NCBI GenBank assembly: GCA_016933575.1
Contig: JAFGAR010000070.1
Span: 1 to 64,000, forward strand
Length of the DNA stretch: 64,000 bases
Source: Candidatus Thorarchaeota archaeon
GTDB lineage: Archaea > Asgardarchaeota > Thorarchaeia > Thorarchaeales > Thorarchaeaceae
Reading direction: 5' to 3'
Shown: piece after piece, positions 37,366-61,611 of the stretch
How positions within the stretch are numbered: position 1 is the first letter of the stretch
How the letters are laid out: every line of letters begins with the position of its first letter
Notes under the pieces: generated by a model
Told to the model about the DNA's origin: nothing
Databases searched by the model: none
The model's input: the letters and a program-made list of their open reading frames with translations, nothing else
Made by a program: the position numbers and the translations under genes

Positions 37366-37668
37366 TTACTTCTCATCAAAGAGGGCATCTACAGCACCAA
37401 TAGCTCCTCGTGCCTCTTCACTAGTAAACTCGCCTAGTGAACCTGATTTTGCGATCTGTATTGTAACAACAGCTTGTTCATCTCTGGGTTGCATCTCCCA
37501 CGAAACATCGAACCCTGGTTGTTCAGCAATGAATTGCTTTAGCATATCGAGCCATGCTTCCTTGACGTCGTCTATCGTGATGTAAATGAACTCTATGAGT
37601 GGGATTGATATTTCGACCCTAAGAATACGTCCATCAAGGATGTAGTAGTTTTCAATGTCCCATGGCAT
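37366..37668 (-). CDS. Hypothetical protein
   Basis: 100-aa ORF with GAGG upstream, directly downstream of the large surface-protein genes. Confidence 0.65.
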   Translation of the reverse strand: MPWDIENYYILDGRILRVEISIPLIEFIYITIDDVKEAWLDMLKQFIAEQPGFDVSWEMQPRDEQAVVTIQIAKSGSLGEFTSEEARGAIGAVDALFDEK

Positions 37669-37730: not shown

Positions 37731-40700
37731 CTATTCTTCTGTTGTGTTATCTTTTTTGGGCTCTTCATCTTTCTTTGCCGTTAAGAGCGATTCAACATCC
37801 TTAACGAAGGCTTCCATTGGGTCAATCTCTTTCTCAGACTCAGAAGGTGGAGGTTCGATATCTACGTCCTTGTCGTGAGTTGGTTCTTCTTCTTTCTCTT
37901 CTTCTATATCCTCAGGCTCTTCTTCTGTAATCTCATCCTCTGGAACTGGTTCCATGTCTTCCTCAGACTCTTCGGTTGAAGGCCCTTCCATGATTTCTGT
38001 TGGCTCTCCATTAGAGAGACCCATCCCCTGTCGTTGAAGGACAGTCTGCACGCCGACTGGGACTATTGCGCCTTTGTCTTGAAGGGCTAACAGTCTATCC
38101 AGGATTTTAGCTTCGGATTCTTCGAGCATCTCAGAGAGTGGTGTCAACAGATTTCTGATGAAGAACTCTCCCCGTTCATCCCTGACTGCTGCAATGTAAT
38201 CAAGAATTCTTGCTTCAGTTTTCGAGACCTTTTGTGTTGGTCCAAACCTGTGCGGGAGCAGCCATGAATAATTGAATGCTGAATTCAATGTTGATACGAC
38301 CCATTCTGGGTCGAAGCAGTCGATAAGCCCAGTCCACCCATCAAGGTCTCTCTCATATTGATTCTCGAATAGTTCAACAAAGAATTGCAATCGGTCTTTT
38401 AGGAGGGGCGTCATCTCTCCCTCCAAAATGAGGATTCCTATGATCTTATCACCGCTATAGCTGTTCAATCGAAGTCCATGATATTGGATCTCTTCAAGAG
38501 TTCCACGTACGCCATCACCTTTGATTTCACCATATACACTCGTTATTGCTGCAATGAATCCGCTGATTAGGTCTGGTTGAATTCTTTCGTCAGTGAATGG
38601 ATGGTAGAAGACACAAGTTCCTCTATCGAGGTAAACTGCCATGAAATGTCGAAGTGACTCTAGGTCAACAAACATCTGAAGCTGGTTGTCAAGCGAAGAG
38701 CGAGCTGCACGCTTCTTTGGTTTAATCTTACGATTATATGTGGCAGCTACAATTCCAAGGACTACAAATGAGATTAGTATGAGTCGTCCTATATTGTCCA
38801 TGAAAAAGAAGTTGAAGAGAATTAGTAGTGGATTGGTTCCTGCTCCAACAGTTATTGCCTTTTCAGCGCTCCATAGTAGTCTACTTCCGTGATAATACGC
38901 TTCAGCTTGAATCGACTCGATACTTCCAGATGGAATCTCAAAATTCCATGTTGCAATACCATTTGTGTTTGTTGAGTCGTATTGTGAACTATCGTCTCTA
39001 ACGAGTTGAGTACCATTTACGAATGTAATTCTAACAACAAAATAGATGTCTTGTCCAACTACAGGCGTTCCTGTGTCATTATAACGTAATGTGGCAATTA
39101 GGCTTACAATTTGTCCCTCTATACTTGGGTCTCCCTCAGAAGTCAATTCAAGATTAACAGAACGTTTACCCTGAACGAGTAGTGAGAATGTGTCAGAGGC
39201 TGAGTTAGCCAAAGGTGCACTTGCCGCAATAGCTACCGTATAAGTTCCAGGCGTAAGATCGAGTAAAATTTCAATGCTGTAAACACCTGCTGAGTATGCT
39301 AATGTATAATCGACACCATCAAGGGTCATCACTACATTTGCTCCAGTTATTGGAGTGCTATAAAGCGAGTCTGAATACGTCACTGTAACTGTGAGATTCC
39401 ATTGTTCGTATTCTTGGTCGAGTGCGTCGATAGAGATAGTAGTAGTTGCTCGCACACTCAGGGTGAGAAAGACTGTAGTTGTTTCATATCCATATCTGAC
39501 CATGGTCACATTGACTTGATAAATCCCTGCAGTCTGAGGTGGTGCAATATTGACTGAATATTCTCCGACTGCATATACTGTTTCAATTCCATTGACTGTG
39601 ATATACAAGATAGCATCACTGATTATTGTACCAATCGAATCTCTTACAGTCATAGCCAGAGGCGCGTCTGTTGCATAATCTGTGGTCGCTGCGGAACTTG
39701 TCCACGAGTTTTCTAGCGAGGGAATATCCTCTGTCACATAGAGAGTCTGTGTTTCTTGTCCTTGGTCATAGCCATCTCTACTAGCTCGCACAGTGAGTGT
39801 TGTGGTACCAAGGTAATCACTACCATCCAGTGTGACTTCCCACTGCTCAGAAAGGGGATTATAGGTCATGTTTACTAGTGGATATCCAACGAATGTAACT
39901 CTGACCCAAGCATCGCTAATCGGGACAGAGTTGAAATTATATGTGACAGTTATCGTGATCTGTTCTATGTAGGTGATATTTCGATCTGTTGGGTTCCAAT
40001 CAACAGAGAATACAACTCCTGTCTCACTACTTACAGAGATCGTCAGTGTGTCATTATACTGAGGTGCATATCCTATCTTCCATGCACTAACGTTTAGTGA
40101 GATAATACCTGGGACACCAGTGAAATTCTCGCCATGCAATTCAATCCAATAGACCTCTGCTATACCGTCCCATGTGAGATTGTAGGTATGCGATTCAAAG
40201 GTGACATTCACCCATGCACCTGGAATACGTATATCATTCACATCCACGTAGGAAACTGTGAGATTTGTACTTTCCAAGTAAGAAATGTCATTACCCTGCA
40301 ACCAAGTCCAGTTAATCGGTTTAGTTTCATAGGTTAGGTCAATAGCGATTATTAGACTCTGATTTTCCAAAGCATACCCTTCTGCATAGATGTAAAGAAG
40401 ATGAATACATGATGACATCCCTGTTGTGTCTATATCCTTCGTCCACCTCCCATTTCCCTGATCATCCATAGTCGCATTGATTATCGCACCAAATGAATAT
40501 GTGACATCTGATAGGGAATCATCTATTCCTAGAAACGGAAATATGCAATCAAAATCAACACCTATTGAGAATGCTGAAGATGTATCAGCGTATGCTGAGA
40601 TACTATAATCATCAGCAACAAGAGTTGTTGAGTAGAACACGAAGACTTCTGTCACCAGATAGCCTGCTTCCAAACCGTTTGACCAGAACACTTCAATTGA

Positions 40701-42263
40701 ATATGTTCCATTATAATCTGCAATTGAGTCTATATTCCAGAGATAGTTTGTAAGACCTCCAGACACTGATACATTTGCAGGTGTATATGTAACCACGCCT
40801 CCGTACCAAATTGTGAGATTTGTCATTCCGCTTTCCTGAGGAGTGCCAATTCCATCTTCAACTGAAACATCAATATCGACGTCTGTGAGAATACTTACTT
40901 TATCTAGGATGGGAATTCCCGTAGAAGAATCAGAAAGATCTATTGCAGTGACATAATTATCTGCAGTATTGGTTAGAATCCAAGTGCCATTCGTCAAGTC
41001 CGTACAGTAAACTAGACTTCCAATCTTTGTGAAATGTCCATAATCAATACTAGTGCTATTGTATAGTCCGATTGGAGTCCAATCTGACGGTATTGAAACA
41101 TTCGCGAAATAAGTTGTTGTACCTGATGCTACTGGAAAGTCTAAAATCATTGAAACATTCCAATATACTTGATCTCCTGAATTTATCACATTCCAAATAG
41201 TTGATGCAGTGCTCTCTTTCTTATATTGGAGGGTTATGTTATAATCTATGGTAATCGACTGGTTCGATTGAAAATTAATTAATGCCATGTCATCATTTGA
41301 TGTGAATGACCAAGATGTTCCACTTAAGCTGGTTCCATTGCCTGTTAGGGCAATTTGCTCTGCGGTGGCATAAGTAAGAGGCGCATTTTCAGTCTTATTC
41401 CAAGGTGTATATGTATAGTTGAGTTCAGCTTCTCTTATTTGCCCTGCGTCATAGACATCCCAATCATTTGGAGGTGCTACGTCACGTAAGTGATAGCCAG
41501 TCTGAAGACCTGCATAGGGATACCTTGCTTCCCACCAGATTGAATTGAACACCCATTCATCCACTGGAAAAGGTAAGTATTGACCTATCATATTTGTCCC
41601 ATCTATAACTACATAGTAGAACGTACTCGCATTCATAATAGCTCCGTCTGGAGAACAATCGTGAGTTATTACTTGGTAAAAAGCAGTTTGACTGAATGGT
41701 GTTACCCATCCAGTGACATTAGTTTGTTTATCAGAAAAATTACTTCTCACAACGAGATATGCATGACCCAGAGTGGCTTCGTATTCTGGTGATCGGTAGG
41801 TAAGAGAGTAATTTTCCAGTTTTCCATCGTGAGGCTGATTGTAAAATTCTTGATACAATGCATCTGTTATCAATCCTGTATTATTCTCTATTTTGATGGC
41901 ATCATTAGGATTGATGTTGAATGTCTTACGTTCCGCTGTAGCATTGATATCACTTGCATTGATTTCTATACTAAATAGTGTCCATCCTGGAATTTGATAG
42001 GATGAAAGGTCCAATTGTTCTTGATGGAGTGCATTGTTATATGAGTTCAAAATACTCATTGACTGCCCATTAATGAATCGAGTCATTGATAACACGAGAT
42101 TAGTATCGACTCCATCATTTCCCACATCTGCAATTATTGAATGATCATAAAATGGATTTGAGGTATTAGTAATCGGAGTCACTGTTGAGGGATTAATATC
42201 TGCAATAACGGGAATTATCAGTATTAGCATAAATAAGATGATTGAACTCCGGGTCTTTCTCAT
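37731..42263 (-). CDS. Receptor-like type I membrane protein: signal peptide, head, about 6 Ig-like repeats, TM, cytoplasmic longin-like and wHTH-like domains, acidic tail
   Basis: N-terminal hydrophobic leader, many NxS/T sequons, TM followed by RKIKPKKR, cytoplasmic FMAVYLDRGTCVF...PDLISGFIAAITS..GE...LEEIQY...FENQY...WTG. Confidence 0.85.
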   Translation of the reverse strand: MRKTRSSIILFMLILIIPVIADINPSTVTPITNTSNPFYDHSIIADVGNDGVDTNLVLSMTRFINGQSMSILNSYNNALHQEQLDLSSYQIPGWTLFSIEINASDINATAERKTFNINPNDAIKIENNTGLITDALYQEFYNQPHDGKLENYSLTYRSPEYEATLGHAYLVVRSNFSDKQTNVTGWVTPFSQTAFYQVITHDCSPDGAIMNASTFYYVVIDGTNMIGQYLPFPVDEWVFNSIWWEARYPYAGLQTGYHLRDVAPPNDWDVYDAGQIREAELNYTYTPWNKTENAPLTYATAEQIALTGNGTSLSGTSWSFTSNDDMALINFQSNQSITIDYNITLQYKKESTASTIWNVINSGDQVYWNVSMILDFPVASGTTTYFANVSIPSDWTPIGLYNSTSIDYGHFTKIGSLVYCTDLTNGTWILTNTADNYVTAIDLSDSSTGIPILDKVSILTDVDIDVSVEDGIGTPQESGMTNLTIWYGGVVTYTPANVSVSGGLTNYLWNIDSIADYNGTYSIEVFWSNGLEAGYLVTEVFVFYSTTLVADDYSISAYADTSSAFSIGVDFDCIFPFLGIDDSLSDVTYSFGAIINATMDDQGNGRWTKDIDTTGMSSCIHLLYIYAEGYALENQSLIIAIDLTYETKPINWTWLQGNDISYLESTNLTVSYVDVNDIRIPGAWVNVTFESHTYNLTWDGIAEVYWIELHGENFTGVPGIISLNVSAWKIGYAPQYNDTLTISVSSETGVVFSVDWNPTDRNITYIEQITITVTYNFNSVPISDAWVRVTFVGYPLVNMTYNPLSEQWEVTLDGSDYLGTTTLTVRASRDGYDQGQETQTLYVTEDIPSLENSWTSSAATTDYATDAPLAMTVRDSIGTIISDAILYITVNGIETVYAVGEYSVNIAPPQTAGIYQVNVTMVRYGYETTTVFLTLSVRATTTISIDALDQEYEQWNLTVTVTYSDSLYSTPITGANVVMTLDGVDYTLAYSAGVYSIEILLDLTPGTYTVAIAASAPLANSASDTFSLLVQGKRSVNLELTSEGDPSIEGQIVSLIATLRYNDTGTPVVGQDIYFVVRITFVNGTQLVRDDSSQYDSTNTNGIATWNFEIPSGSIESIQAEAYYHGSRLLWSAEKAITVGAGTNPLLILFNFFFMDNIGRLILISFVVLGIVAATYNRKIKPKKRAARSSLDNQLQMFVDLESLRHFMAVYLDRGTCVFYHPFTDERIQPDLISGFIAAITSVYGEIKGDGVRGTLEEIQYHGLRLNSYSGDKIIGILILEGEMTPLLKDRLQFFVELFENQYERDLDGWTGLIDCFDPEWVVSTLNSAFNYSWLLPHRFGPTQKVSKTEARILDYIAAVRDERGEFFIRNLLTPLSEMLEESEAKILDRLLALQDKGAIVPVGVQTVLQRQGMGLSNGEPTEIMEGPSTEESEEDMEPVPEDEITEEEPEDIEEEKEEEPTHDKDVDIEPPPSESEKEIDPMEAFVKDVESLLTAKKDEEPKKDNTTEE

Positions 42264-42486: not shown

Positions 42487-45400
42487 TTAATCCTTCTTCT
42501 TAATCAACCTCTTTGAGCCCTGGCGAACTTCCTCCAAACTGGAATCTGATTCTAACAAATCTTTTACAATAGACCCTGTCTTGCTAGAAGATAATCCCAA
42601 GCGTTCTGATATTTCCGCACGGGTTAATCCAGTATCACTATTCAATATCTCCTGCCTGGCACGATTTATTGGATCTGTTAATGATATTGATTCAACGGGA
42701 CTAACATTTGGTGTGGTTACTGGTGATGAGACATCTACAATTCCTGGTCCCCTTTTTCGTTTCATCAATGCTATAGCAAGAAGTGGAAATGAAACGCCTC
42801 CAGCTATTACTGCTATCATTACTGGATTGTTCAAGATTATGTCTAAGATACCAGAGTTTGGAGCTGTGATAGCTATGTGTCGGGGCGAAGATAATGCTAG
42901 CCACGTTGATAATGAGCCATTATATTGAACGACAATATCTAACGCAATTGCATCCAATGGCACAGTGAATTCGATTGTAGCCACTCCATCGCTGGAGGTC
43001 GATGCACCCATGATAGTAATTCGAGAACCATCTTCTGTAATAACAGTAATTGAGAATACTAGTTGAATACCACTAACTGGAGTACTTTGTTGATGAACTG
43101 TAGCTGTTACAAGAAGTACTTCGCCTGTCTGTATCTCTTCCACAGCAGATACTGAAATCGTATAGGTTGCTTTTTCCAGTATAACAAGATCAATGTATGC
43201 GATCTGAGTTTCGCAATCACTGGCTATTACTTCAAGCGACAGGTTGTATGTTCCTGGTACAAAAGTACTGAGCCAGATTGAAGTCGAATAATTCTGAGAG
43301 CCTGCTGAGTATACCAGCGAGTATTCAACACTATTTAGAACCACTTTCACATTGGCCCAATCAATTGGAATCATATTGTTCGTATCTGCTAACTTAATCG
43401 TGATTAGGATTGTTTCGTTTTCGTATTGGGAAATCTGTGAAGTGAATTCAATTTGGGTTGGTATTGGCATAACATCAATAATGACTTGACCAGTTCCGTT
43501 ATCATATCCTGCACACTCAAGAAGTATATTCAAAGTATAGCTTCCAGTGTGTACTGATCCACCTCCAATCTCAACAATATATGTCCCATTCCCTAAGTCT
43601 ATCACGTTACTAGTACTAATCCAGTCAATAGATGAGAGAGCCCCACTAATTCCACTATTTGTTCTTGTATCGAGGAATGTGAATCTAATGGAAGTAGACT
43701 CTCTTGCAAACATCACTAGAGGTTCGGGATTCACTACAATAGTGGGAATGAGTAAGATAGTAATTTCTAACATGTACGAATGTGTGGAATAGCCATAGGC
43801 TAATGTCGTGATGTTGAACGTATGTATACCAACGCCTAGGTCTTGTCCCTCAATATTTAGAACCCAATGGTCTGTACTCCACACTACACTCTGAGTCACT
43901 TCTTCTAGAGTGACAACACAAATGGCTCCTTGAATGATGCTCAAATTACTCATTCTATAGTAGATATCCGCCAGTTCATTTTCATCAAAATAGAACGTGC
44001 TTGTGGATGGTAAGACGCTCAATGTTGTGGATTCCTGAATGACTGTTAGAATGTTCGAATACCATCCGTCACTGTAACCCGTCATATTTGCAGTAACTGT
44101 AACATTCCATGTACCAAGGTCAATTTCCGATGCCAGAATACTAAAATGCCATTTCTTATCAATTGAATTATAGACAAGGTCATAGACTGTACCGTTGATT
44201 GAGAGTCGCACGGTTGCCCCAACTATTGGTTGAAAATCTTCAGTGTAAATGACCGTTAGATTTACAGTATCTGTATAGCTTGGTTGTAAGTTTCCCGGCT
44301 CCCAAGTCACAATAAATGAGTTTGCGGCAAGTGTCACATTTACTCCCAAAGTAAGGTTGGCTCGATGAGTGTAGCCATATAGCCATGCACTGATTGTAGC
44401 TTCGTAATAGCCTATGCCTAACTCATTACCGGAAATACTTATTCTCCAAGCATTTGATGAGTAAGTAAGATTGTAAATGTGCGTATCAATGGTCATATTG
44501 ACTATTGCTGTATCAGGAACATCTCCTCCATAGTATGTATAATCAACTACTAACGTCAGTACGCCTGTGTATTCGATTGTCACATTGCTTGGGTCCCAAA
44601 TCACGCTAAGTTGATCTGTAATCACTTCACTGACCATCAAGGTTTCTAGAGCTTCTGCATAAGTATAACCATAGGCATCTGCTCGAATGATAACTGTATG
44701 TTCACCTAAGTCAAGATTGATACCGGTCAAATTGAAGTACCAAAGATCTCCAGATGATAGTAATGGAATTGGAGTAGTTCCGTCGATTGAGATATTGATA
44801 TTAACTCCTGTTGGAACTGCTTGACCTGTTAGAACATAGAAGTAGTTAGCAGTGAGGTCTATCTGACCTAGATAGTCAATTGTAATTGAATTCCAATCAA
44901 GATCTAGATTAGTTATAGCCTCAATTATATTGAATTCAATTGAGGCGTTTACTGCAAACTGATACCCATATTTACTGATGTTTACAACAACGACATGATT
45001 ACCGAGATTAAATGAGTTGTTGAATTCAAACCAATAGACACCATTTGTTCCATGTAACACGTAAAGCGTTCCATTAATACTGATTGTCTTAAGCGTCGCG
45101 TTCTCGATGAGTGAACCATGGGAGTCTCGATATTCAATCTCAAGGATGATGCTCTCAGTCCAATCTATAGTATCTGTAAGCCAGGAAGCAATTGCTAGAG
45201 TTGGTTCTTCATCAACAGCAAGAGTTGTGGTTGCAAATTGACTTGAGTATACGTCCCCTGAAGCAAGTATACTCATGCTATAGTTACCTAATCCTGGAGG
45301 ATTCATATTTCCATAGAATTTATACTGATAACCTCCTATAGAACCATTCCATATTAGTGACCAATTATCAAACCCAATCGTGACATTTAGAATCCCTGTT

Positions 45401-48400
45401 GATATGCTAGTTCCATTACTCATCCTGTAGTAGACAGTTAAAGTTGTAGATTCAATAAAGGTGATTGAATTGCCATTGGACCATGTCACTTGGATAGTTG
45501 TCGGATCTTTGGTCAGAGTGAGGTACTCTGATGTGTTATGAGCGATTTTGAAACCATACTTTTTAGCATCAACCACAACTGTGTATGTTCCAAATCCCGG
45601 TGGAATATCCGATCCATTGAAGCAGATACCATATGAACCTTCAGTTGCATTCCATAGGAGATTCCAAGTTTCAATCTCGATAGTAACATTGACCGATGCT
45701 CCCAGAATTGGTGATGAATTACTCATCAGATAGTCTACAAACAAGTATGTGTATTCAAAATATGACACATTATTCTGATTTGGAGAACTCCATCTGGGTA
45801 TCAAAGTTGTTATTTCTTCGTTTATGTGGAGATTCAGATAATTGTCAGTCAGCCCAACAAATCCAAATCTTTCTGCTTTAATCTTCAATTCATGTGTTCC
45901 GAATCCAGGCAATGAGTCAAATCCATTGAAAACTAAACGATATGTTTCACTTAGACTATGCCAATGTAGCTCCCAGAACATAGTTGTATCGATGGTGACA
46001 TTGACAGTTGCAAGAGCGATTGGTGTACCATCCGATGTTGTATAGTTCACAACGAGGATTGTTGATTCAACATAAGAAATATTGTCTCCACCAATCCAAT
46101 AACAATCAATCATCACTGACTCGGATAGTATTCGTAATGTCTCTAAGTTATATTCAGCATCCTTATACCCTTCATGTAATATGTAAGTGCTAGAAATATA
46201 GAGTCTATGTGTTCCTAGACCTGGGGGATCCATATTACCAGTGAATGTGAATACATAGAGGTGTAGGTCTGAGTCGTACGTTGCTTCCCAGATATCCGTT
46301 CCAATTCGAATAGTCACGTACGCATCTTCAACAGGAGAACCATCTGATATGGAATAATTGATGTGGATTGTTGCACTCTCTGTGAAAGTAATGGTATTAT
46401 TTCCGTCCAACCATATGGCATGAAGTGTTGTTGCTTCTTGATTGAATGTGATGGACTGCGAAATGTCAATTTGAGAGAGATAGTTTGATTTCCATGCTTG
46501 GGCTAGCAAAGTATGAGGTCCAATCACAGGAATGGGGAAAGTATCCCCTGTGAAGACCACCTCATATGCTTTTTCCGCCTCATTCCAATTTGCAGGCCAA
46601 GTCAAGACATATGTAACATTCACTGTTGCCCCTAGTACTGCAGCACCACTTTCCAATCGGTAATATATCCTGAGTATTGTTGTTTCGAGGTATGTTATTG
46701 TATCGCTTGGTACCCATTCAAAGGAAATGGTCGTGTCTTCTCGTCGTATTGTGAATTTTTCTTCTAAATCGACAGATGGAAGATAGCCATAGCCAGAAGC
46801 ATTGATTAATACGTCAAAAGTATCAAAGTAAAAACTACTATCATTACCTCTAAACTCCCTTTCATACGCATTGCTAGTACTATTCCAGACGAGGTCCCAG
46901 AGAGTCCCATCTATCGTCACATTGAGCATTCCTGTTGTAATTGGTGTTGAGTTACTCATGATGTACTGAACAGATAGGATCGTTGTACTATAGTAGGTGA
47001 TATTATTACCATTAGTCCAAAAGATAACAAGACTGGTGGGTTCTAAGCCAATTGTCAGCGTTTCTGTATTATTTGATTGGTATTGGAAATCACTCTTTGA
47101 GGCATTGATGACTAGTGAATAGGTCATGAAATCTAGCGAGCTATCCGACCCTGAGAAAGTTCCTTCATAAGCGTGCGATTGAGAGTTCCATGTAAGATTC
47201 CACGTGACACTGTTTATTGTGACATTGACAACAGCATCGAGAATCCAAGTATCGTTATACATCATATAGAAGACTTGCAAAGTTGTATCTTCAACATAGG
47301 TGATATTATCACCATTGGTCCAAGTAATTGTCAATTTAGTCGGAATGACTGGAATTATCAATTCTTCATCGTTATTTGTCTGGTAACCGAATCCGTAACT
47401 CCAAGCTTGGACAATTACAGTATAGGTTCCAACTCCAGGATATACATCCGAACCATTGAATCTCAGTTGATAATATTCCGCAGACTCGTTCCAATACATC
47501 AACCATGTTCTTGAATTAACTGTTGCATTGATGTATTCTAACACTACTGGTTCATCATTGTCATAGTTGTACTCAGCAATCAGGTAAGTATACTCATAGA
47601 ATCCTGGGTTATTTACTCCATTTGCCCAGTAGACATACAGAGAAGTTGGTTCCTCAACAAGAGTGACTCTCTCAGTTGGATCCAATACTGCTTCAAATCC
47701 TAATCTTGATGCGTGAATAATTACGGTAAATGAGCCAAGTGCTGGTAGATCTTCAGATCCTTCAATATAGAGGTAGAATTTCTGCGCTGTTGAATTCCAT
47801 ACCATTGGCTTCAGAACACCTGCTACAGTTGCGTTGACAATGGCATCAGATATCGCACTATTGTTGTTATTCATGATATAATTTACAGTCAGGACACATC
47901 TACCCATGTAAGTAGTTTCATTCGTAGGAATCCATTGAACTATGAGTGTTGTTGCTTCATTTTCAATAGTAAGGGAATCGTTATCAAATACAGTAATGAA
48001 TCCATATCGAGAAGCGTTAATTGCAAGAGAGTGTGTTCCTAAGCCGGGCGGTGCATCACTTCCTGAGAATTCCCATCTATATGTCTGAGTTCCTCCATCC
48101 CAAGTAAGGTTCCATGTTGATACGCCAATCGTAATGTATACTATAGCACCTGAAATTGGTGTTCCATTAGACATTGTGTAATTGATTGAGATAATCGTTG
48201 ATTCAACATATGTTATTGTTGACGGACCTATCCATTGCGTATCAATGGTTGTTGGTTCTGGTCTTAATATCAGATCTTCATCTATATTCTCTTTATTGGC
48301 AAAACCGTACTTATCTGCTTTAATTGTCAGCTTATGCGTTCCAAAGCCTGGAGGCAAATCCGAACCATTGAATATCAAGATGTATGATTCTGATCCATCC

Positions 48401-51078
48401 CAAATTAGATTCCACGAAGGATATCCGCTGATTGTTACATTCACCATAGCTCCTTCAATAGGTGAACCATCACTCATATTGTAGGAAACGATTAGAGTAG
48501 TCTGCTGTACAAATGTGATATTGTAATCTGAGGACCATTTGATTGTTAATGAGGTTGACTCAATATTAATAGTAAATGAAGTAGTGCTGTTTGAATGGTT
48601 TTCAAATCCGAATTTTCCAGCCGCAATATTGATGCTATGTGTTCCCAATCCTGGAAGTACGTCACTACCATTAACAGTCAGATAGTATAGCTTTGAAATT
48701 GGATTCCAGTGTAGTTCCCAAGGTGTTGTATCAATTGTTACATTTACGATAGCATCCAGTACTGGTTGACCATCAGACATTGTATAATTTACAATTAACA
48801 TGGAGTCCTGTACATAGGTGATAACATCTCCATTTAACCAAGAAAATGTGAGAGAAGTGTACTCCTTATGAATCGTAAGTGTCTGAGTTGTGTCACTCTG
48901 TTCTCTATATCCTTCCCGCCAAGCCTCTATCTCGAGATTGAAGGCTCCAAATCCTGGGAATACATCAGTTCCATTGAACGTGATTCTATAGAGGCTTAGG
49001 TCTCCATCCCAATGGAGTGAATAAGGTGTTCCATCAATCGTTACATTGACAGTTGCATCAGTAACCGGGATTCCACCAACTCGATTGTAAGTCACTAACA
49101 GACTTGTTGTTTGGACATAAGAGATGTTGTTTGTATTCGACCATTGTACAAAAAGCGGTTGTGTATCATGAATGAGTAATGCATCAATAATTAAACTCTG
49201 GTTTTCTATTGCATACCCTTCAGCATAGACTCTAACAGTATAAATCCCTGAAGATTTTCCTGATGTATCAATAGATGCTGTCCAAATTCCATTACTCAAA
49301 TCTATCAGACTTGTATTAGTGCCTCCATCAAATGAATACATGACCATAGCATAAGCACCATCCAGTCCTTGAGGCGTGAATGTATCTGTTAGATTGACAC
49401 TAATGGAAAAACTACTGTCAGTATATGCATCTATTTGATATGACGAAGCAGAGAAACTAGTAGGATAATAAAGGACCAGCTCTTTAGTTCTGTATCCTGC
49501 TTCTGTGCCATTACACCAGTATTCAGTAATTGTATACTGACCATTTGAAAGTGTAGTTGAACTAATGTCCCATAAGTAATGTGATTTTCCAGTGACTACT
49601 GACTGATTATTTGGAGCCCATATTTTGGAACTAAGATGAAAGATCGTGAGATTCGTAGTACCTGTACCCACGGGATTTAGATCTATATCTGTCAAAGTTG
49701 AATTGATATTAATTTCAGAATCTATGGAAGTCTTCGTAAAAACCTCAATATCATTTTCTGCATCATAAGTCTGTATTGAAGTTAGATAATTTCGAGATGA
49801 GGATATCAGAGTCCAAGTATCGTTGCTTAATTCAGAGCATTGGATGACACTTTGAAGTCTTTCATAGCTCGAGTGGTTTGTAGATGGTGCTGATGATTTG
49901 TAGAGTCCTGACACAATCCATGTTGTTGGTATTGTTAGATTGAGAAATTTCCGTTCAGCTATCATTGGATATTCAATAGCAGTTGATACATTCCATTCTA
50001 TATCTTGTCCCGACTCGGTGGCAAACCAATTTGAAGGCGATGATACTGATTTTCTGTAAGAAAGTACCATTGTATAGGAAATCTCAACAGACTGACTTGA
50101 GTCAAATTCTATGCAATCAATATTATCTTCATCAGAAAAAATCCATGTTAATCCTGAAAGCGCTGATGTGTTACCCCTAATATTTACACTCGTTGGATCC
50201 AAGTAGACAAGAGCATTGTTACTGGTCTTATTCCATGGTGTGTATGTATAGTTGAGTTCGGCTTCTCTCATCTGCCCAGAATCATATTGATCCCAAATAC
50301 CATCTCTAATGTGATATCCTGTTTCAAGTCCGAGATAGGGATATTGTGCCCTCCAGTATATTTTATTGAATTTCCATTGACCATCGTAAATCCCCTCCAT
50401 TCCAGTCCCATCGATAACAACATAGTATTTAGTACTAGCATTTAGAATTGCATTATCAAGTGAGCACTCATGAGTGATTGTCACCCAAGACAATCCTTGT
50501 TGAAACGGAGTTATCCATGAAGTGATATTTGTCTGTTTATCTGAATAATCACTCCTTACCACGAGGTAAGCATGTCCAAGATCCGGATAGTATGGATATA
50601 CTAGTGCACCAAATGTGTAATTTTCTAATTTTCCATCGTGTGGTTGACTATAAAATTCCTGATATAATGCATCGTATACGAGCCCTGAAACGTTTTGAGT
50701 ATTAATGTAGTTATTTGGATTCACACTGAGCCTTTCATGCTCTGCAACAGCAGTGATCGAACCAACTTCTATTGAAACCTCATACAGTTCCCATGATGGA
50801 ATATAATATTCTAAAAGGTTCAACTCTCCTACATGCTGATTAATGTTAGAATAGGAGTTTACAATATGCAAGGATTGTGTACTAATGTTACGTGTCATGA
50901 AAGCTATTGAGTCTGATATACTTCCTAATCCTTCGACCGATGCTAAGGTTGAAAAATTGTGAAAAGTACTATCCTGATTAAATTCACTGGCATAGCTGTT
51001 TTCTAAAGTCGTATTTCCTGTTGGAACAGATAATAAGCTAATCATAAGGAAGACCATTAAAACAGCCAAACGTTTCAT
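42487..51078 (-). CDS. Giant receptor-like type I membrane protein: signal peptide, head, about 22 Ig-like repeats, TM, C-terminal winged HTH
   Basis: MKRLAVLMVFLMISLL leader, ~100-aa repeats, TM plus KRKR, and C-terminal EILNSDTGLTRAEISERLGLSSSKTGSIVKDL...VRQGSKRLI. Confidence 0.88.
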   Translation of the reverse strand: MKRLAVLMVFLMISLLSVPTGNTTLENSYASEFNQDSTFHNFSTLASVEGLGSISDSIAFMTRNISTQSLHIVNSYSNINQHVGELNLLEYYIPSWELYEVSIEVGSITAVAEHERLSVNPNNYINTQNVSGLVYDALYQEFYSQPHDGKLENYTFGALVYPYYPDLGHAYLVVRSDYSDKQTNITSWITPFQQGLSWVTITHECSLDNAILNASTKYYVVIDGTGMEGIYDGQWKFNKIYWRAQYPYLGLETGYHIRDGIWDQYDSGQMREAELNYTYTPWNKTSNNALVYLDPTSVNIRGNTSALSGLTWIFSDEDNIDCIEFDSSQSVEISYTMVLSYRKSVSSPSNWFATESGQDIEWNVSTAIEYPMIAERKFLNLTIPTTWIVSGLYKSSAPSTNHSSYERLQSVIQCSELSNDTWTLISSSRNYLTSIQTYDAENDIEVFTKTSIDSEININSTLTDIDLNPVGTGTTNLTIFHLSSKIWAPNNQSVVTGKSHYLWDISSTTLSNGQYTITEYWCNGTEAGYRTKELVLYYPTSFSASSYQIDAYTDSSFSISVNLTDTFTPQGLDGAYAMVMYSFDGGTNTSLIDLSNGIWTASIDTSGKSSGIYTVRVYAEGYAIENQSLIIDALLIHDTQPLFVQWSNTNNISYVQTTSLLVTYNRVGGIPVTDATVNVTIDGTPYSLHWDGDLSLYRITFNGTDVFPGFGAFNLEIEAWREGYREQSDTTQTLTIHKEYTSLTFSWLNGDVITYVQDSMLIVNYTMSDGQPVLDAIVNVTIDTTPWELHWNPISKLYYLTVNGSDVLPGLGTHSINIAAGKFGFENHSNSTTSFTINIESTSLTIKWSSDYNITFVQQTTLIVSYNMSDGSPIEGAMVNVTISGYPSWNLIWDGSESYILIFNGSDLPPGFGTHKLTIKADKYGFANKENIDEDLILRPEPTTIDTQWIGPSTITYVESTIISINYTMSNGTPISGAIVYITIGVSTWNLTWDGGTQTYRWEFSGSDAPPGLGTHSLAINASRYGFITVFDNDSLTIENEATTLIVQWIPTNETTYMGRCVLTVNYIMNNNNSAISDAIVNATVAGVLKPMVWNSTAQKFYLYIEGSEDLPALGSFTVIIHASRLGFEAVLDPTERVTLVEEPTSLYVYWANGVNNPGFYEYTYLIAEYNYDNDEPVVLEYINATVNSRTWLMYWNESAEYYQLRFNGSDVYPGVGTYTVIVQAWSYGFGYQTNNDEELIIPVIPTKLTITWTNGDNITYVEDTTLQVFYMMYNDTWILDAVVNVTINSVTWNLTWNSQSHAYEGTFSGSDSSLDFMTYSLVINASKSDFQYQSNNTETLTIGLEPTSLVIFWTNGNNITYYSTTILSVQYIMSNSTPITTGMLNVTIDGTLWDLVWNSTSNAYEREFRGNDSSFYFDTFDVLINASGYGYLPSVDLEEKFTIRREDTTISFEWVPSDTITYLETTILRIYYRLESGAAVLGATVNVTYVLTWPANWNEAEKAYEVVFTGDTFPIPVIGPHTLLAQAWKSNYLSQIDISQSITFNQEATTLHAIWLDGNNTITFTESATIHINYSISDGSPVEDAYVTIRIGTDIWEATYDSDLHLYVFTFTGNMDPPGLGTHRLYISSTYILHEGYKDAEYNLETLRILSESVMIDCYWIGGDNISYVESTILVVNYTTSDGTPIALATVNVTIDTTMFWELHWHSLSETYRLVFNGFDSLPGFGTHELKIKAERFGFVGLTDNYLNLHINEEITTLIPRWSSPNQNNVSYFEYTYLFVDYLMSNSSPILGASVNVTIEIETWNLLWNATEGSYGICFNGSDIPPGFGTYTVVVDAKKYGFKIAHNTSEYLTLTKDPTTIQVTWSNGNSITFIESTTLTVYYRMSNGTSISTGILNVTIGFDNWSLIWNGSIGGYQYKFYGNMNPPGLGNYSMSILASGDVYSSQFATTTLAVDEEPTLAIASWLTDTIDWTESIILEIEYRDSHGSLIENATLKTISINGTLYVLHGTNGVYWFEFNNSFNLGNHVVVVNISKYGYQFAVNASIEFNIIEAITNLDLDWNSITIDYLGQIDLTANYFYVLTGQAVPTGVNINISIDGTTPIPLLSSGDLWYFNLTGINLDLGEHTVIIRADAYGYTYAEALETLMVSEVITDQLSVIWDPSNVTIEYTGVLTLVVDYTYYGGDVPDTAIVNMTIDTHIYNLTYSSNAWRISISGNELGIGYYEATISAWLYGYTHRANLTLGVNVTLAANSFIVTWEPGNLQPSYTDTVNLTVIYTEDFQPIVGATVRLSINGTVYDLVYNSIDKKWHFSILASEIDLGTWNVTVTANMTGYSDGWYSNILTVIQESTTLSVLPSTSTFYFDENELADIYYRMSNLSIIQGAICVVTLEEVTQSVVWSTDHWVLNIEGQDLGVGIHTFNITTLAYGYSTHSYMLEITILLIPTIVVNPEPLVMFARESTSIRFTFLDTRTNSGISGALSSIDWISTSNVIDLGNGTYIVEIGGGSVHTGSYTLNILLECAGYDNGTGQVIIDVMPIPTQIEFTSQISQYENETILITIKLADTNNMIPIDWANVKVVLNSVEYSLVYSAGSQNYSTSIWLSTFVPGTYNLSLEVIASDCETQIAYIDLVILEKATYTISVSAVEEIQTGEVLLVTATVHQQSTPVSGIQLVFSITVITEDGSRITIMGASTSSDGVATIEFTVPLDAIALDIVVQYNGSLSTWLALSSPRHIAITAPNSGILDIILNNPVMIAVIAGGVSFPLLAIALMKRKRGPGIVDVSSPVTTPNVSPVESISLTDPINRARQEILNSDTGLTRAEISERLGLSSSKTGSIVKDLLESDSSLEEVRQGSKRLIKKKD
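45230..49170 (-). repeat. 13 well-conserved ~100-aa Ig-like tandem protein repeats
   Basis: Consensus E.T.L...W..G..ITY.E.T.L.V.Y.MS.G.PI..A.VNVTI....W.L.WN.....Y...F.GSD..PG.GT..L.I.A...G(F/Y). Confidence 0.85.
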
Positions 51079-57900: not shown

Positions 57901-59730
57901 TTATCGAGTGTATCTATATCCTGTTTTTTTCTTCCAAAGAATGACTGCTGCTCCAAGAAGAAATCCTATTCCACTCATTATTGGAATTACATATCTCTCC
58001 AAACGAAGCTCTGCAACAAGCGGATTTGTTCCCTCTAAGTACTCTCTTAGATTTGATACTTGATCGTTATCCGGGTCCTCTTGAGAATCATCGGTACCTG
58101 GGTCAAGTCCATTCTGAACTTCCCACAGGTCTGGTATGGTATCCTGATCAGAGTCAAGTGAAAACGGATTGGAATTCGCCAGATACTCCTGAAGATTCGT
58201 CAATGTATCGCCGTCTTCGTCATTGAGGGCATCGGTTGGGTCTAAAGGATTAAGGTGGTATTGCAACTCCCAATTATCTGGAATCATATCTTGGTCTGAA
58301 TCACTATTTGTCCATGATGTTCCTAGTATCATTTCTTCTGCATCGGAGATTGTATCAGAATCACTATCAATTGAGAAATACTCTTGACCAATCCAGAATT
58401 CTTCACTATCCGATACCATATTACCATCTATGTCTGATTCATATTCGCAAGACATCTCAAAACCGGTACTTGTTCCTCCCTGATTGTATATTTGAATACG
58501 ATATATTCCATTAGACATCAAATACTGCTGGAGAACCACAGTTGGTTCCCAAGGGGAACCATGATTATACTCAACTTCTTTCAGGAGGATATTATCTGGA
58601 TCATAAATAGCAAAGGTTGCGGATCCCCCATACCACCTGCAGGAGACATTAACGGTTGTTGGGTTGGTATTGACAAGGTAGTAATTTCTTTGAGCTCCAG
58701 GAATTATTACTGACTTTCTCTCTCCTATGGTATTCTGATTGTATGCTCTTGCCATCGTAAATGCGATGCTTGCCCCAATTGATTTGACTCCCTCAATTGC
58801 TACATTGTAATCATAATTAGGATTATCCCAGACATCATTCGCAGTATGGTAGGCTCCATCAATGTTGAAGCCACTCTCATGAGCGAAGAGAGATCTTTCA
58901 AATCCCTGAATTATAAACGAGTAATGGTCCGAAGCAGTCCATCCAGGAAAGTCGCTTTCGCTGACTGGTTCAATCATATCCTGTCCAAAATTCTTGCTCA
59001 TTGCACATGGTAGGTCTGCCCAGTACTTGCCATTATGATATGCTGCAAACGGATATGCCATCAATACAGTAGCATCATGTGGTGAGGGAACAAGTAACAT
59101 ATCGATATTATAGTGAACGAGGAGTTCTACATCTCTGTCATCAAGAATTTCAGCGACTTCATTTGATCCCCTCAATCCAATCTCTTCCGCGTTCCATGCA
59201 CCAAAGTAAATATCGAGAGGCCATTGATACTGTGAAAGAACACGAGCTAGCTCAAGCATAGTAGCTACTCCAGAGCCATCATCATTTGCTCCAGGACCTT
59301 CTATTACGCTATCAAAATGCCCTCCAACAAGAAAAGCGGGAGCATCAATGGGAAGGTATCCGGGAAGTCTACCAAGAACAGACTGATAGTCCCCAAGGAT
59401 TTCGACCTCGATTCTTCCATTTGACACTCTATACATCTCCTGAGCAATCCAGTTCTTCGCAGCAATATTGGCATCGCTCATTGTATTTGGTGACAATATC
59501 CATCTTGAACCATTCTCAGTAAGCTTGATAATATAGTTCTGAAAAGAAGTCTTGGAGATGGATTCAAAGATTATCTCTGAGTAATCCTCTCCATAGACTC
59601 TATTTGCTATCAGTGATTGTATCACCTGTGGAGTGTGTACATTTTGTTTTGCCACTGAGATTGCTGTGACTCCGGTCTGTGAGGTCAAGAGAGTGAAACA
59701 GATGATTACTGTTAATATGAGTCGCCTCAT
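57901..59730 (-). CDS. Membrane-anchored M28 zinc aminopeptidase with beta-sandwich domain and Asp-rich Ca-binding repeats
   Basis: Signal peptide, GHFDS, GANDDGSG, NAEEIG, NIDM, SDH, YHT..D, DSDxDxxxDxxE repeats and a C-terminal TM with WKKK. Confidence 0.9.
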   Translation of the reverse strand: MRRLILTVIICFTLLTSQTGVTAISVAKQNVHTPQVIQSLIANRVYGEDYSEIIFESISKTSFQNYIIKLTENGSRWILSPNTMSDANIAAKNWIAQEMYRVSNGRIEVEILGDYQSVLGRLPGYLPIDAPAFLVGGHFDSVIEGPGANDDGSGVATMLELARVLSQYQWPLDIYFGAWNAEEIGLRGSNEVAEILDDRDVELLVHYNIDMLLVPSPHDATVLMAYPFAAYHNGKYWADLPCAMSKNFGQDMIEPVSESDFPGWTASDHYSFIIQGFERSLFAHESGFNIDGAYHTANDVWDNPNYDYNVAIEGVKSIGASIAFTMARAYNQNTIGERKSVIIPGAQRNYYLVNTNPTTVNVSCRWYGGSATFAIYDPDNILLKEVEYNHGSPWEPTVVLQQYLMSNGIYRIQIYNQGGTSTGFEMSCEYESDIDGNMVSDSEEFWIGQEYFSIDSDSDTISDAEEMILGTSWTNSDSDQDMIPDNWELQYHLNPLDPTDALNDEDGDTLTNLQEYLANSNPFSLDSDQDTIPDLWEVQNGLDPGTDDSQEDPDNDQVSNLREYLEGTNPLVAELRLERYVIPIMSGIGFLLGAAVILWKKKTGYRYTR

Positions 59731-59742
59731 AGTTTTTCCTCA

Positions 59743-61611
59743 TTATTCCTTAGAATTCTTTAATCTTCGAATATAAAGAAACACTACGATAGGCGCAATG
59801 ACAACAATCGGTGATATTGTCAGTAAAATCTGCATGGAATTATATTCTAGGGCATAAGGATTCGTTCCATCTAAGTACTCTTGGAGATTGCTCTTTCCAT
59901 CTACGTCAGGATCGAGTTCAGCATCATTGATCAGTGGATTAAGGCCATTTTCAAGCTCCCATAAGTCTGGTATCATATCGGAATCTGAATCTTCGGAGTA
60001 TGGATTAGTTCCAACTGAGTATTCTTGAGCATTGCTCAAGCCATCTTCATCAACATCGAGACTTCCATCAGCGGGATCTGTTGGATTGAAACCCCAATCG
60101 ACTTCATACTTATCATCCATGATATCAAGATCAGAGTCAGTAAGAGTAACATCAGTACCTAGGAATATTTCTTCTGCGTCGGACAGACCATCGTTATCTT
60201 GATCTAAATTGAAATATGCCTGATTCAACCAATACTCTTGACTATCAAGCACGTTATTTCCATCGATATCAGACTCAAAGGTCATTGAGATCTCGTAGCC
60301 TATTGAATTATAATAGGCGTTTTCAATAACGAATGCGTAAAGTCCATTGCTGGTCACTTGGGTGTTAAAGACATCTGTTGGAAACCACGCTGAAGTATGA
60401 TTATATAATGCACTATCAATAATATTGAGGTTTGGATCATAGAGATAGAAGTTGGCAGGTCCTCCGAACCATCTTACACTGATATTGACTGAAGTAGGCG
60501 TTGTTACAGGAATGTAATAATACGCAATTCTTCCAGAACGTACCGTGTCTTCGAATACTAGGGCATTGGGCTCTCCATATCGGCGGCTCATCGTATAAGC
60601 TAAGATTGCGGCAATTGTTCCCCCTGTTTCCTGCGCAAGTATGTAGTCGTACTCAACATTGTTCCATCTATCGTTTGATGTTAAGTAATTTCCATCAACA
60701 CTACGTCCCGATTCAAAGGCACAAACAATGTTAGTATATCCTTCAGCGACGAAAGAGTAATGATCTGATCCTGTCCAAAGGAAGAAGGAGTTTGATGCAA
60801 TTGGTACAAATGCTCCCATTCCATAATTTTGACTAATTGCTCGTGTGAGATCGCCCCAATATTGTCCCTCATGATATTGCGAAGTTGCTCCTTCGAGATA
60901 CCCTATCTGAATATATTCATCTCGCGGGAGGGCAAGGTTGGGCACAAGAATCGAATCAATATTGTATAAGGTAAGAATATCTATTTCTCTATCGACAAAT
61001 TCCTCAGCGACTTCCTGACTTCCTCTCCTGACAGGGACTGAACTGTCACTCAGAAGATCATAGACATAGAGCGCGTTGAATGCAATGAAATAGATATCAA
61101 GTGGCCAATCATAAAATGAAAATATCCTTGCGAGTTCCAGCATAACTGCAATACCAACGCCATCGGAATTCGCCCCAGGCGAATTCGGTACTGCGTCATA
61201 ATGAGCTGAGATAACAAATACCGGATTGTTACCTGGCAAGTAGCCTGCTAATCTGCCTACGACATTCTTGTAGTCACCAATTATTTCAATCTCTATTTTA
61301 CCTCTAGTTTTTTGATATAACTCTTGAATGATATAGTTTCGTAGATACATATTTGCTCCTACGTTCACATCGCCTAGCTCTTGCACATCCCTTGAACCAT
61401 TCTCTGTTAATTTTTGGACAAGTGATTCAATAGTGGAGGAACTGAGTTGTTGATAGAGTTCTTCTGCAATATTCTTGCCATAAATACGGTTTCCCACAGA
61501 TTCTGGAGAAGCTGAAGGACTAGCAGCATCAATTGGCACTTCATTGGCAGTACTATTTAATGGACTGATTAAAATCAAGCCAAGTATGATAATGGGCCAT
61601 AGATGCTTCAT
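59743..61611 (-). CDS. Membrane-anchored M28-like protein, predicted catalytically inactive
   Basis: Same architecture as the neighbour, but GANSDG, NALY (for NAEE) and YLTSND (for YHT..D). Confidence 0.85.
   Translation of the reverse strand: MKHLWPIIILGLILISPLNSTANEVPIDAASPSASPESVGNRIYGKNIAEELYQQLSSSTIESLVQKLTENGSRDVQELGDVNVGANMYLRNYIIQELYQKTRGKIEIEIIGDYKNVVGRLAGYLPGNNPVFVISAHYDAVPNSPGANSDGVGIAVMLELARIFSFYDWPLDIYFIAFNALYVYDLLSDSSVPVRRGSQEVAEEFVDREIDILTLYNIDSILVPNLALPRDEYIQIGYLEGATSQYHEGQYWGDLTRAISQNYGMGAFVPIASNSFFLWTGSDHYSFVAEGYTNIVCAFESGRSVDGNYLTSNDRWNNVEYDYILAQETGGTIAAILAYTMSRRYGEPNALVFEDTVRSGRIAYYYIPVTTPTSVNISVRWFGGPANFYLYDPNLNIIDSALYNHTSAWFPTDVFNTQVTSNGLYAFVIENAYYNSIGYEISMTFESDIDGNNVLDSQEYWLNQAYFNLDQDNDGLSDAEEIFLGTDVTLTDSDLDIMDDKYEVDWGFNPTDPADGSLDVDEDGLSNAQEYSVGTNPYSEDSDSDMIPDLWELENGLNPLINDAELDPDVDGKSNLQEYLDGTNPYALEYNSMQILLTISPIVVIAPIVVFLYIRRLKNSKE

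Follow-up and report, generated by a model that had tools for sequence, protein, structure and literature searches.

The 64,000-nucleotide stretch of DNA analyzed here (positions 1 to 64,000 of contig JAFGAR010000070.1, Candidatus Thorarchaeota archaeon assembly GCA_016933575.1; hereafter the window) encodes what its sequence features predict to be a giant, N-glycosylated, repeat-built surface protein that crosses the membrane once and carries a winged helix-turn-helix (wHTH) domain inside the cell. Window positions 42487-42830 are the 3' end of its gene, one uninterrupted open reading frame (ORF; 42487-51078, minus strand) that translates into 2,863 amino acids (aa) without internal stops. 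The C-terminal domain belongs by its profile matches to the sequence class of DNA-binding regulators (HTH_24/MarR-like), and our tentative interpretation, for which the odds are somewhat short of even, is that the protein is a membrane-resident regulator resembling the transmembrane transcription regulators (TTRs), whose wHTH would bind nucleic acid while tethered. An earlier note on this DNA had described a transmembrane segment (TM) containing GG and Pro, then KRKR, a Pro/Thr/Ser linker, and a wHTH at the C terminus, and all of these could be located by residue count. The features of the giant gene are as follows.

51013..51078, minus strand, aa 1-22: signal peptide (approximate), with a hydrophobic N-terminal segment at aa 4-22
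42826..51012, minus strand: ectodomain, made of head, repeats, and membrane-proximal region
About aa 23-643, minus strand: ectodomain head (~620 aa)
aa 644-2449 and 2541-2643: ectodomain repeats, 18 contiguous ~101-aa units and one further unit, found with a self-built repeat hidden Markov model (HMM)
42763..42825, minus strand, aa 2752-2772: single TM anchor, PVMIAVIAGGVSFPLLAIALM, with an (N/D)P cap and GG, from a hydropathy scan and the 30-sequence alignment
42751..42762, minus strand, aa 2773-2776: KRKR stop-transfer cluster, a basic cluster being found in most orthologues too
42673..42750, minus strand, aa 2777-2802: flexible linker of 26 aa, rich in Pro, Ser, Thr, and Val (predicted local distance difference test, pLDDT, about 50-60)
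42490..42672, minus strand, aa 2803-2863: cytoplasmic wHTH of 61 aa, from Pfam, AlphaFold2 (AF2), and conservation
Elements of the wHTH: H1, aa 2803-2813; H2, aa 2820-2827; H3, aa 2831-2844; wing, aa 2848-2861
42487-42489, minus strand: stop codon

The topology of the protein is supported as N-out/C-in because a signal-like segment opens it, a basic cluster follows the TM (of the RRRR(G) type in most orthologues), and N-x-S/T sequons are in excess in the ectodomain, where 98 were counted against 40 +/- 6 in composition-matched shuffles, with a single one in the tail. The ectodomain holds at least 19 repeat units, the number found by the self-built HMM, and has a weak Pfam match to Invasin_D3. 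Among the 30 aligned orthologues, the linker is variable in sequence and preserved in composition and approximate length. An internal start that would give a free wHTH was considered and rejected, the Met that precedes KRKR not being conserved in the alignment.

The assignment of the tail to DNA-binding regulators comes from several profile searches. The isolated tail passed the Pfam family HTH_24 (PF13412), scoring 24.2-25.2 bits against a cut-off of 21.9, and fell slightly below the cut-off (21.3 bits) when a longer piece, aa 2300-2863, was scanned; the same family was matched by 30 of 30 family members, with a best E of 2.8e-8. DUF7343 (PF24034) stayed under its threshold of 27.6 bits in the giant protein, at 13.4-18.3 bits depending on the piece scanned, and was matched below threshold by 10 of the 30 members, whereas MarR_2 scored 16.6-17.6 bits against a cut-off of 27 and HTH_IclR was likewise sub-threshold. 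The MarR family proper (PF01047/PF12802) was set aside as an assignment, its score lying below cut-off and the 61-aa domain having none of the flanking dimerisation helices. In a profile search of PDB sequences, the top matches were SloR, CAP, XylR/MecR2, LexA, and MntR, which are DNA-binding wHTH proteins. The earlier note had allowed that a wHTH of the ESCRT-II or RPA type might be the better match; this was not the outcome of the profile scan, RPA_C being matched weakly by nine of the 30 members (best E 0.002), the giant protein itself not among them, as against HTH_24 in all 30. ESCRT-II was absent among the matches listed in the profile and fold searches, and RPA32 among those listed in the fold searches, an absence that does not exclude either.

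A single-sequence AF2 model of the tail was poor (pLDDT 57), and a model computed from the 30-sequence alignment was used in its place. This model shows the order H1-b1-H2-H3-b2-b3 with pLDDT 91-94 over aa 2803-2863 and a disordered linker, so that the predicted fold is a canonical winged HTH. Foldseek against the PDB returned no match under E 1e-3, the best being around 7e-3; re-alignment with VIA placed the model on solved wHTH domains with Z 9-11 and a root-mean-square deviation of 1.6-2.6 A over 60-66 residues. The neighbours found by VIA, all tied, included DriD, ScpB, ZitR/AdcR, SelB, NolR, Z-alpha, and AspA among others and were mostly DNA-bound regulators. With HTH_24 passed and a canonical fold predicted, the membrane-tethered wHTH of a DNA-binding sequence class that the earlier note had proposed beneath a giant ectodomain is borne out.

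The wHTH is also the best-conserved segment of the giant protein, at 46-64% identity compared with 27-55% for the head, the repeats, and the membrane-proximal part. In the family alignment, R2820, which opens H2, does not vary, K2833 of H3 is retained in 29 of 30 members, position 2839 is K or R in all of them, and four wing positions are basic in 80-97%; the conserved basic positions of the tail are R2820, K2833, K2839, R2852, R2857, K2860, and K2862. This pattern of conservation is consistent with a nucleic-acid-binding face.

The distribution of the architecture was examined with phmmer, run exhaustively against 1.8 billion representative proteins; this gave 39 matches to the tail, 18 of them below 1e-10, and 30 relatives were aligned for the family alignment, the profile, and AF2. 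In true relatives, the module always stands at the extreme C terminus of orthologous giant proteins; by BLASTP each tail-bearing match is an orthologue, or a fragment of an orthologue, of the same giant protein, with 34-51% identity over thousands of residues. About 30 Thorarchaeota orthologues, standing in syntenic loci, carry the tail, and the named homologues all come from metagenome-assembled genomes (MAGs) labeled "Candidatus Thorarchaeota archaeon"; the window's own source MAG is 3.47 Mb long and 85.5% complete. The wHTH profile matched 10 of the 18 other genomes of the same genus and gave no match in 12 genomes from other families of the phylum; among the genomes searched, the combination of giant ectodomain and C-terminal wHTH is limited to one Thorarchaeota genus. 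Five apparently short proteins (P0014, P0017, P0021, P0033, and P0034) appear to be pieces of giant orthologues produced by gene calling and were discounted as such, and an apparently broken tail in genome G012, with one TAG within the match, is intact, the TAG being the natural stop codon. A variant subfamily known from metagenomes (P0015, P0016, P0023, P0036, and P0038) has an extra cytoplasmic segment of ~90-130 aa between TM and wHTH, which contains a second wHTH-like motif with a weak likeness to the wHTH-like segment of the tandem paralogue described below (BLASTP E 0.011). Literature searches on DUF7343 and on giant surface proteins of Asgard archaea that end in a wHTH turned up no paper about this family.

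Within the genus the presence of the tail is facultative. In the genomes G013 and G008 the giant frames, of 2,996 and 2,998 aa, terminate immediately after ...IMIVGGAGGGVLVVLFLIRRRWKKSSS and ...LTLFGGGIFAIIIVIVGILRRRRSG, respectively, at an RRR cluster, and neither a wHTH nor a remnant of one follows the basic cluster. The two genes lie as follows.

G013, contig C13, 36698-41098 (locus L019): tail-less giant gene
G008, contig C93, 504-4949 (locus L018): tail-less giant gene

In both genomes the paralogue comes after the tail-less giant gene, as in the window. In a maximum-likelihood tree built on the C-terminal ~770 aa of the ectodomain, both tail-less proteins nest in a clade with tail-bearing ones (99/96 support), and every major branch includes tail-bearing proteins; in the set covered by the tree, the tail is therefore likely to be ancestral and to have been lost later in some species.

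These tail-less orthologues also bear on the TM, whose GG and Pro had been read in the earlier note as helix-breaking and as a mark of substrates for intramembrane proteases. Both features are indeed present in the TM and conserved across the giant-protein family, but they do not set this TM apart. Of the 108 C-terminal anchors of this genome, 21 contain GG, compared with 11.6% of internal TM-like windows; among the 14 surface proteins with 1,000 aa or more whose C terminus is a TM anchor plus a short basic RRRK tail, about 10 contain it (read by eye from the C termini). A GG/Pro TM is an ordinary anchor type here. Moreover, the tail-less orthologues retain the (D/G)P...GG motif, so that this anchor is found whether or not there is a domain to release. 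In many large surface proteins of the genome, a Thr-rich stalk is followed by a TM that bears a GG (V/I)G motif and then by a C-terminal RRRK tail, examples being

C38, 36442-42318: surface protein with a GG anchor
C78, 20789-24013: surface protein with a GG anchor
C212, 64596-69281: surface protein with a GG anchor

and two such anchors have sub-threshold matches to NCBIfam GG_III-CTERM. A role of the GG anchor as a sorting signal was considered and dropped, GG_III-CTERM being sub-threshold in those anchors and unmatched in the giant protein; a search of this 85.5%-complete genome for an exosortase/archaeosortase (PF09721) gave no match.

Downstream of the giant gene lies a tandem paralogue with the same head, four repeats, a TM, and a conserved cytoplasmic module, as seen with the repeat HMM and BLASTP. 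The paralogue and the gene order around the pair can be summarized as follows.

37731..42263, minus strand: tandem paralogue of 1,510 aa
37731-38840, minus strand: cytoplasmic part of the paralogue, a ~265-aa module with a wHTH-like segment and then an acidic tail
Syntenic order: two M28 peptidases, two unknown genes, POR subunits, CN-hydrolase, DUF2299, giant gene, ~1,510-1,530-aa paralogue, ~105-aa ORF, LarA, VTT-domain genes

This order is common to contigs from different samples with four different orthologues, the upstream end being cut off in one contig, and the giant gene and its paralogue keep their tandem order in all syntenic loci examined. The cytoplasmic module of the paralogue has 113 homologues at 48-91% identity, with a mean column identity of 71%, and the paralogue's ectodomain is just about 32-38% identical to its relatives. 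No Pfam family was found for the first 166 aa of the module, and no DNA-binding Pfam family scored above cut-off in its wHTH-like segment. Because the cytoplasmic module of the paralogue is far more constrained, it may be the paralogue that performs the main intracellular task of the pair, the wHTH of the giant protein being an accessory. A predicted complex between this module and the wHTH scored 0.01, a value that counts neither way. An ORF of ~100 aa without a Pfam match lies directly downstream of the paralogue (37366-37668, minus strand), and loci with a recovered downstream flank have an ORF of 102-110 aa at the equivalent place. Farther upstream, a pair of genes for membrane-anchored M28 peptidases occupies 57901-61611 on the minus strand; this pair, the next two unknown genes, and DUF2299 have a constant arrangement with respect to the giant gene in those of the Thorarchaeota loci L008-L015 with a recovered upstream flank.

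The genome contains further HTH proteins that are relevant to the tail, two of which can be placed as follows.

G000, contig C212, 31186-31560 (L017, 1187-1558), plus strand: soluble 124-aa wHTH protein
G000, contig C101, 44778-45788 (L016, 1779-2786), plus strand: 336-aa membrane protein with a C-terminal wHTH

The 124-aa protein, with its wHTH at the C terminus, is the nearest relative of the tail in the genome (E 4.5e-7); it passes DUF7343, its wing reads VKYRDGRLIRFR, and it has an orthologue in another genome of the genus (G015, locus L022). Its N terminus is a heptad-like (coiled-coil-like) stretch that could supply dimerisation, a function that in the giant protein would have to come from the TM, with its AxxxG/AxxxS motifs, or from the ectodomain. 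The 336-aa protein consists of a signal peptide, an ectodomain of ~200 aa, a TM, and, at the C terminus, a wHTH that scores 70 bits on DUF7343. All named members among its 228 homologues come from Thorarchaeota, some of them carrying the annotation MarR family transcriptional regulator, and the TM-wHTH tail of the 336-aa protein reaches 83% mean column identity; the wHTH of this family is distant from that of the giant protein (hhalign E 0.005, probability 7%). Two proteins with an N-terminal HTH and four TMs each are encoded in the same genome. Together with the 336-aa protein, they indicate that membrane-bound HTH proteins are used in this lineage.

The mechanism that we tentatively propose for the giant protein is that the 26-aa flexible linker would hold the minimal 61-aa wHTH within roughly 10 nm of the membrane, where the domain would bind nucleic acid while still tethered, as the lack of a nucleus makes possible. 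If the ectodomain or the TM were to cluster or dimerise, which the small-xxx-small motifs of the TM (AxxxG, AxxxS) may favour, two wHTH units would be paired, and this pairing would couple contacts made by the giant protein at the surface to gene expression, any regulatory target being putative. Of the two options in the earlier note, a DNA-binding domain held at the membrane remains the best reading. Several observations weigh against it. The net charge of the tail domain is merely 0 to +4, that is, weakly basic or nearly neutral; the tail has no dimerisation element of its own; and it is dispensable, as shown by the two same-genus orthologues that lack it. The fold search cannot separate a DNA-binding from a protein- or RNA-binding winged helix (wH), as ScpB, SelB, eS25, and Rpc34 were tied with regulators. 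No conserved palindrome or operator emerged when both intergenic regions were aligned across five syntenic loci; these alignments are too diverged, and the sole conserved element in them is a GAGG ribosome-binding site upstream of the paralogue. Finally, a surface protein that may be abundant is an odd carrier for a sequence-specific regulator.

In the main alternative, the tail would not bind DNA and would instead plug the surface protein into a cytoplasmic partner, such as the cytoskeleton, the trafficking/small-GTPase machinery, or the module of the paralogue. wH domains dock proteins in ScpB-kleisin complexes, ESCRT-II, and cullins, and the ties of the ScpB, Rpc34, and SelB domains with regulators, the near-neutral charge, the weak RPA_C matches in nine members, and the paralogue's more constrained module, whose wHTH-like segment is without an above-cut-off DNA-binding Pfam match, are all in line with such a docking role. 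However, DNA-binding families come out ahead in all the sequence profiles, H3 and the wing carry conserved basic residues, and no partner was identified. We regard docking as a doubtful, if serious, alternative. A further alternative keeps nucleic-acid binding and dispenses with regulation: the wHTH would bind DNA or RNA unspecifically and anchor the nucleoid, or plasmid or viral DNA, to the envelope. A minimal wHTH with neither sensor nor dimerisation module would suit this role, the centromere-binding wHTH protein AspA (pNOB8) is among the structural neighbours, and no operator-like conserved motif emerged from the five loci. This structural role nevertheless seems improbable to us, as the domain is weakly basic, the tail is dispensable in some species, and the locus has no partition genes.

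The other option in the earlier note was release in the manner of Notch or SREBP by regulated intramembrane proteolysis: the ectodomain would be shed, S2P would cut the GG/P TM, and the free wHTH would diffuse to DNA. The two S2P/M50 genes of the genome, the GG and Pro conserved in the TM across the family, and the extracellular M28 peptidase pair conserved 7-9 kb upstream in syntenic loci with a recovered upstream flank can be cited in its favour. On the other hand, the TM argument on which it rested fails its controls, because the GG/P TM is generic in the genome, common in anchors that bear just an RRRK tail, and kept in orthologues without a wHTH. The search for presenilin and S2P homologues that the earlier note had suggested gave a divided answer. 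S2P/M50 is present, in two copies, but these are unlinked to the giant locus and the family was matched in all 14 control genomes, making it near-universal. The archaeal presenilin/SPP family (PF06550), which was matched in both control genomes, had no match in any of 19 genomes of the genus, of which 12 are listed as at least 90% complete; presenilin (PF01080) and A22B (PF04258) were not found either, no control genome having matched for either family; and rhomboid, with two marginal matches in the genus, had none in this genome, which is 85.5% complete. In addition, a released 61-aa monomeric wHTH would lose any dimerisation that the membrane part may provide. With the TM argument gone and no supporting feature found, the Notch-like reading is not supported; we consider release by proteolysis quite unlikely, and its boldest version, in which adhesin contact would regulate genes through shedding and an S2P-released wHTH, amounting to Notch-like juxtacrine signalling in a prokaryote of the lineage closest to eukaryotes, is more unlikely still.

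In this family, a DNA-binding-type wHTH stands behind a glycosylated adhesin-like rod of ~2,730 aa in uncultured Thorarchaeota, organisms whose cell-cell contacts are central to ideas on the origin of eukaryotes. If the tail binds DNA, the protein would tie contact at the surface to gene control in an Asgard archaeon in a way open to direct testing, and the close relatives with and without the tail amount to a natural experiment for finding its targets. Whether the tail is a regulator or a docking module, the giant protein would be receptor-like and more than an adhesin.

Several known systems share part of this design. A TTR has been defined as a protein that combines a predicted DNA-binding domain with at least one predicted TM region, and such proteins were reported in 367 of 404 archaeal species, mostly as single-pass proteins that act from the membrane (Demey et al. 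2023, PMC10269533); ArnR and ArnR1 of Sulfolobus acidocaldarius are archaeal examples (PMC6396743). The giant protein falls within this definition through its HTH_24 domain and the TM at aa 2752-2772, and it resembles ToxR, TcpP, and CadC as well as ArnR/ArnR1 in joining both elements in a single chain, together with a part outside the cytoplasm that could act as a sensor. Proteins of the ToxR type, on the other hand, have an N-terminal DNA-binding domain and small periplasmic domains, whereas the giant protein has type I topology, a glycosylated repeat ectodomain of about 2,730 aa, and a C-terminal minimal wHTH of the HTH_24 type. The 336-aa DUF7343 proteins come from the same genome and match its layout of signal peptide, ectodomain, one TM, basic cluster, and C-terminal wHTH; they differ in the size of the ectodomain (about 200 aa) and in a weak wHTH profile match, the giant protein being below the DUF7343 cut-off. 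Substrates such as Notch, SREBP, and RsiW resemble the giant protein in having a large ectodomain, helix-destabilising residues in their one TM, and a module inside the cell with a possible action on DNA, but for the giant protein no linked or lineage-specific intramembrane protease was found, and its TM motif is generic and persists without the wHTH. Giant adhesins of the SiiE, LapA, and Bap types share with the giant protein a head and a long array of ~100-aa beta-sandwich-like repeats that reaches out from the cell surface. These adhesins are kept at the cell by secretion-system retention or by elements of the cell wall or outer membrane, and they are not known to carry a cytoplasmic domain of a DNA-binding type. 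Membrane-bound one-component regulators are known, but those studied are almost all small bacterial proteins with an N-terminal DNA-binding domain, and what the giant protein would add to them is a type I topology in which a giant ectodomain precedes a C-terminal wHTH.

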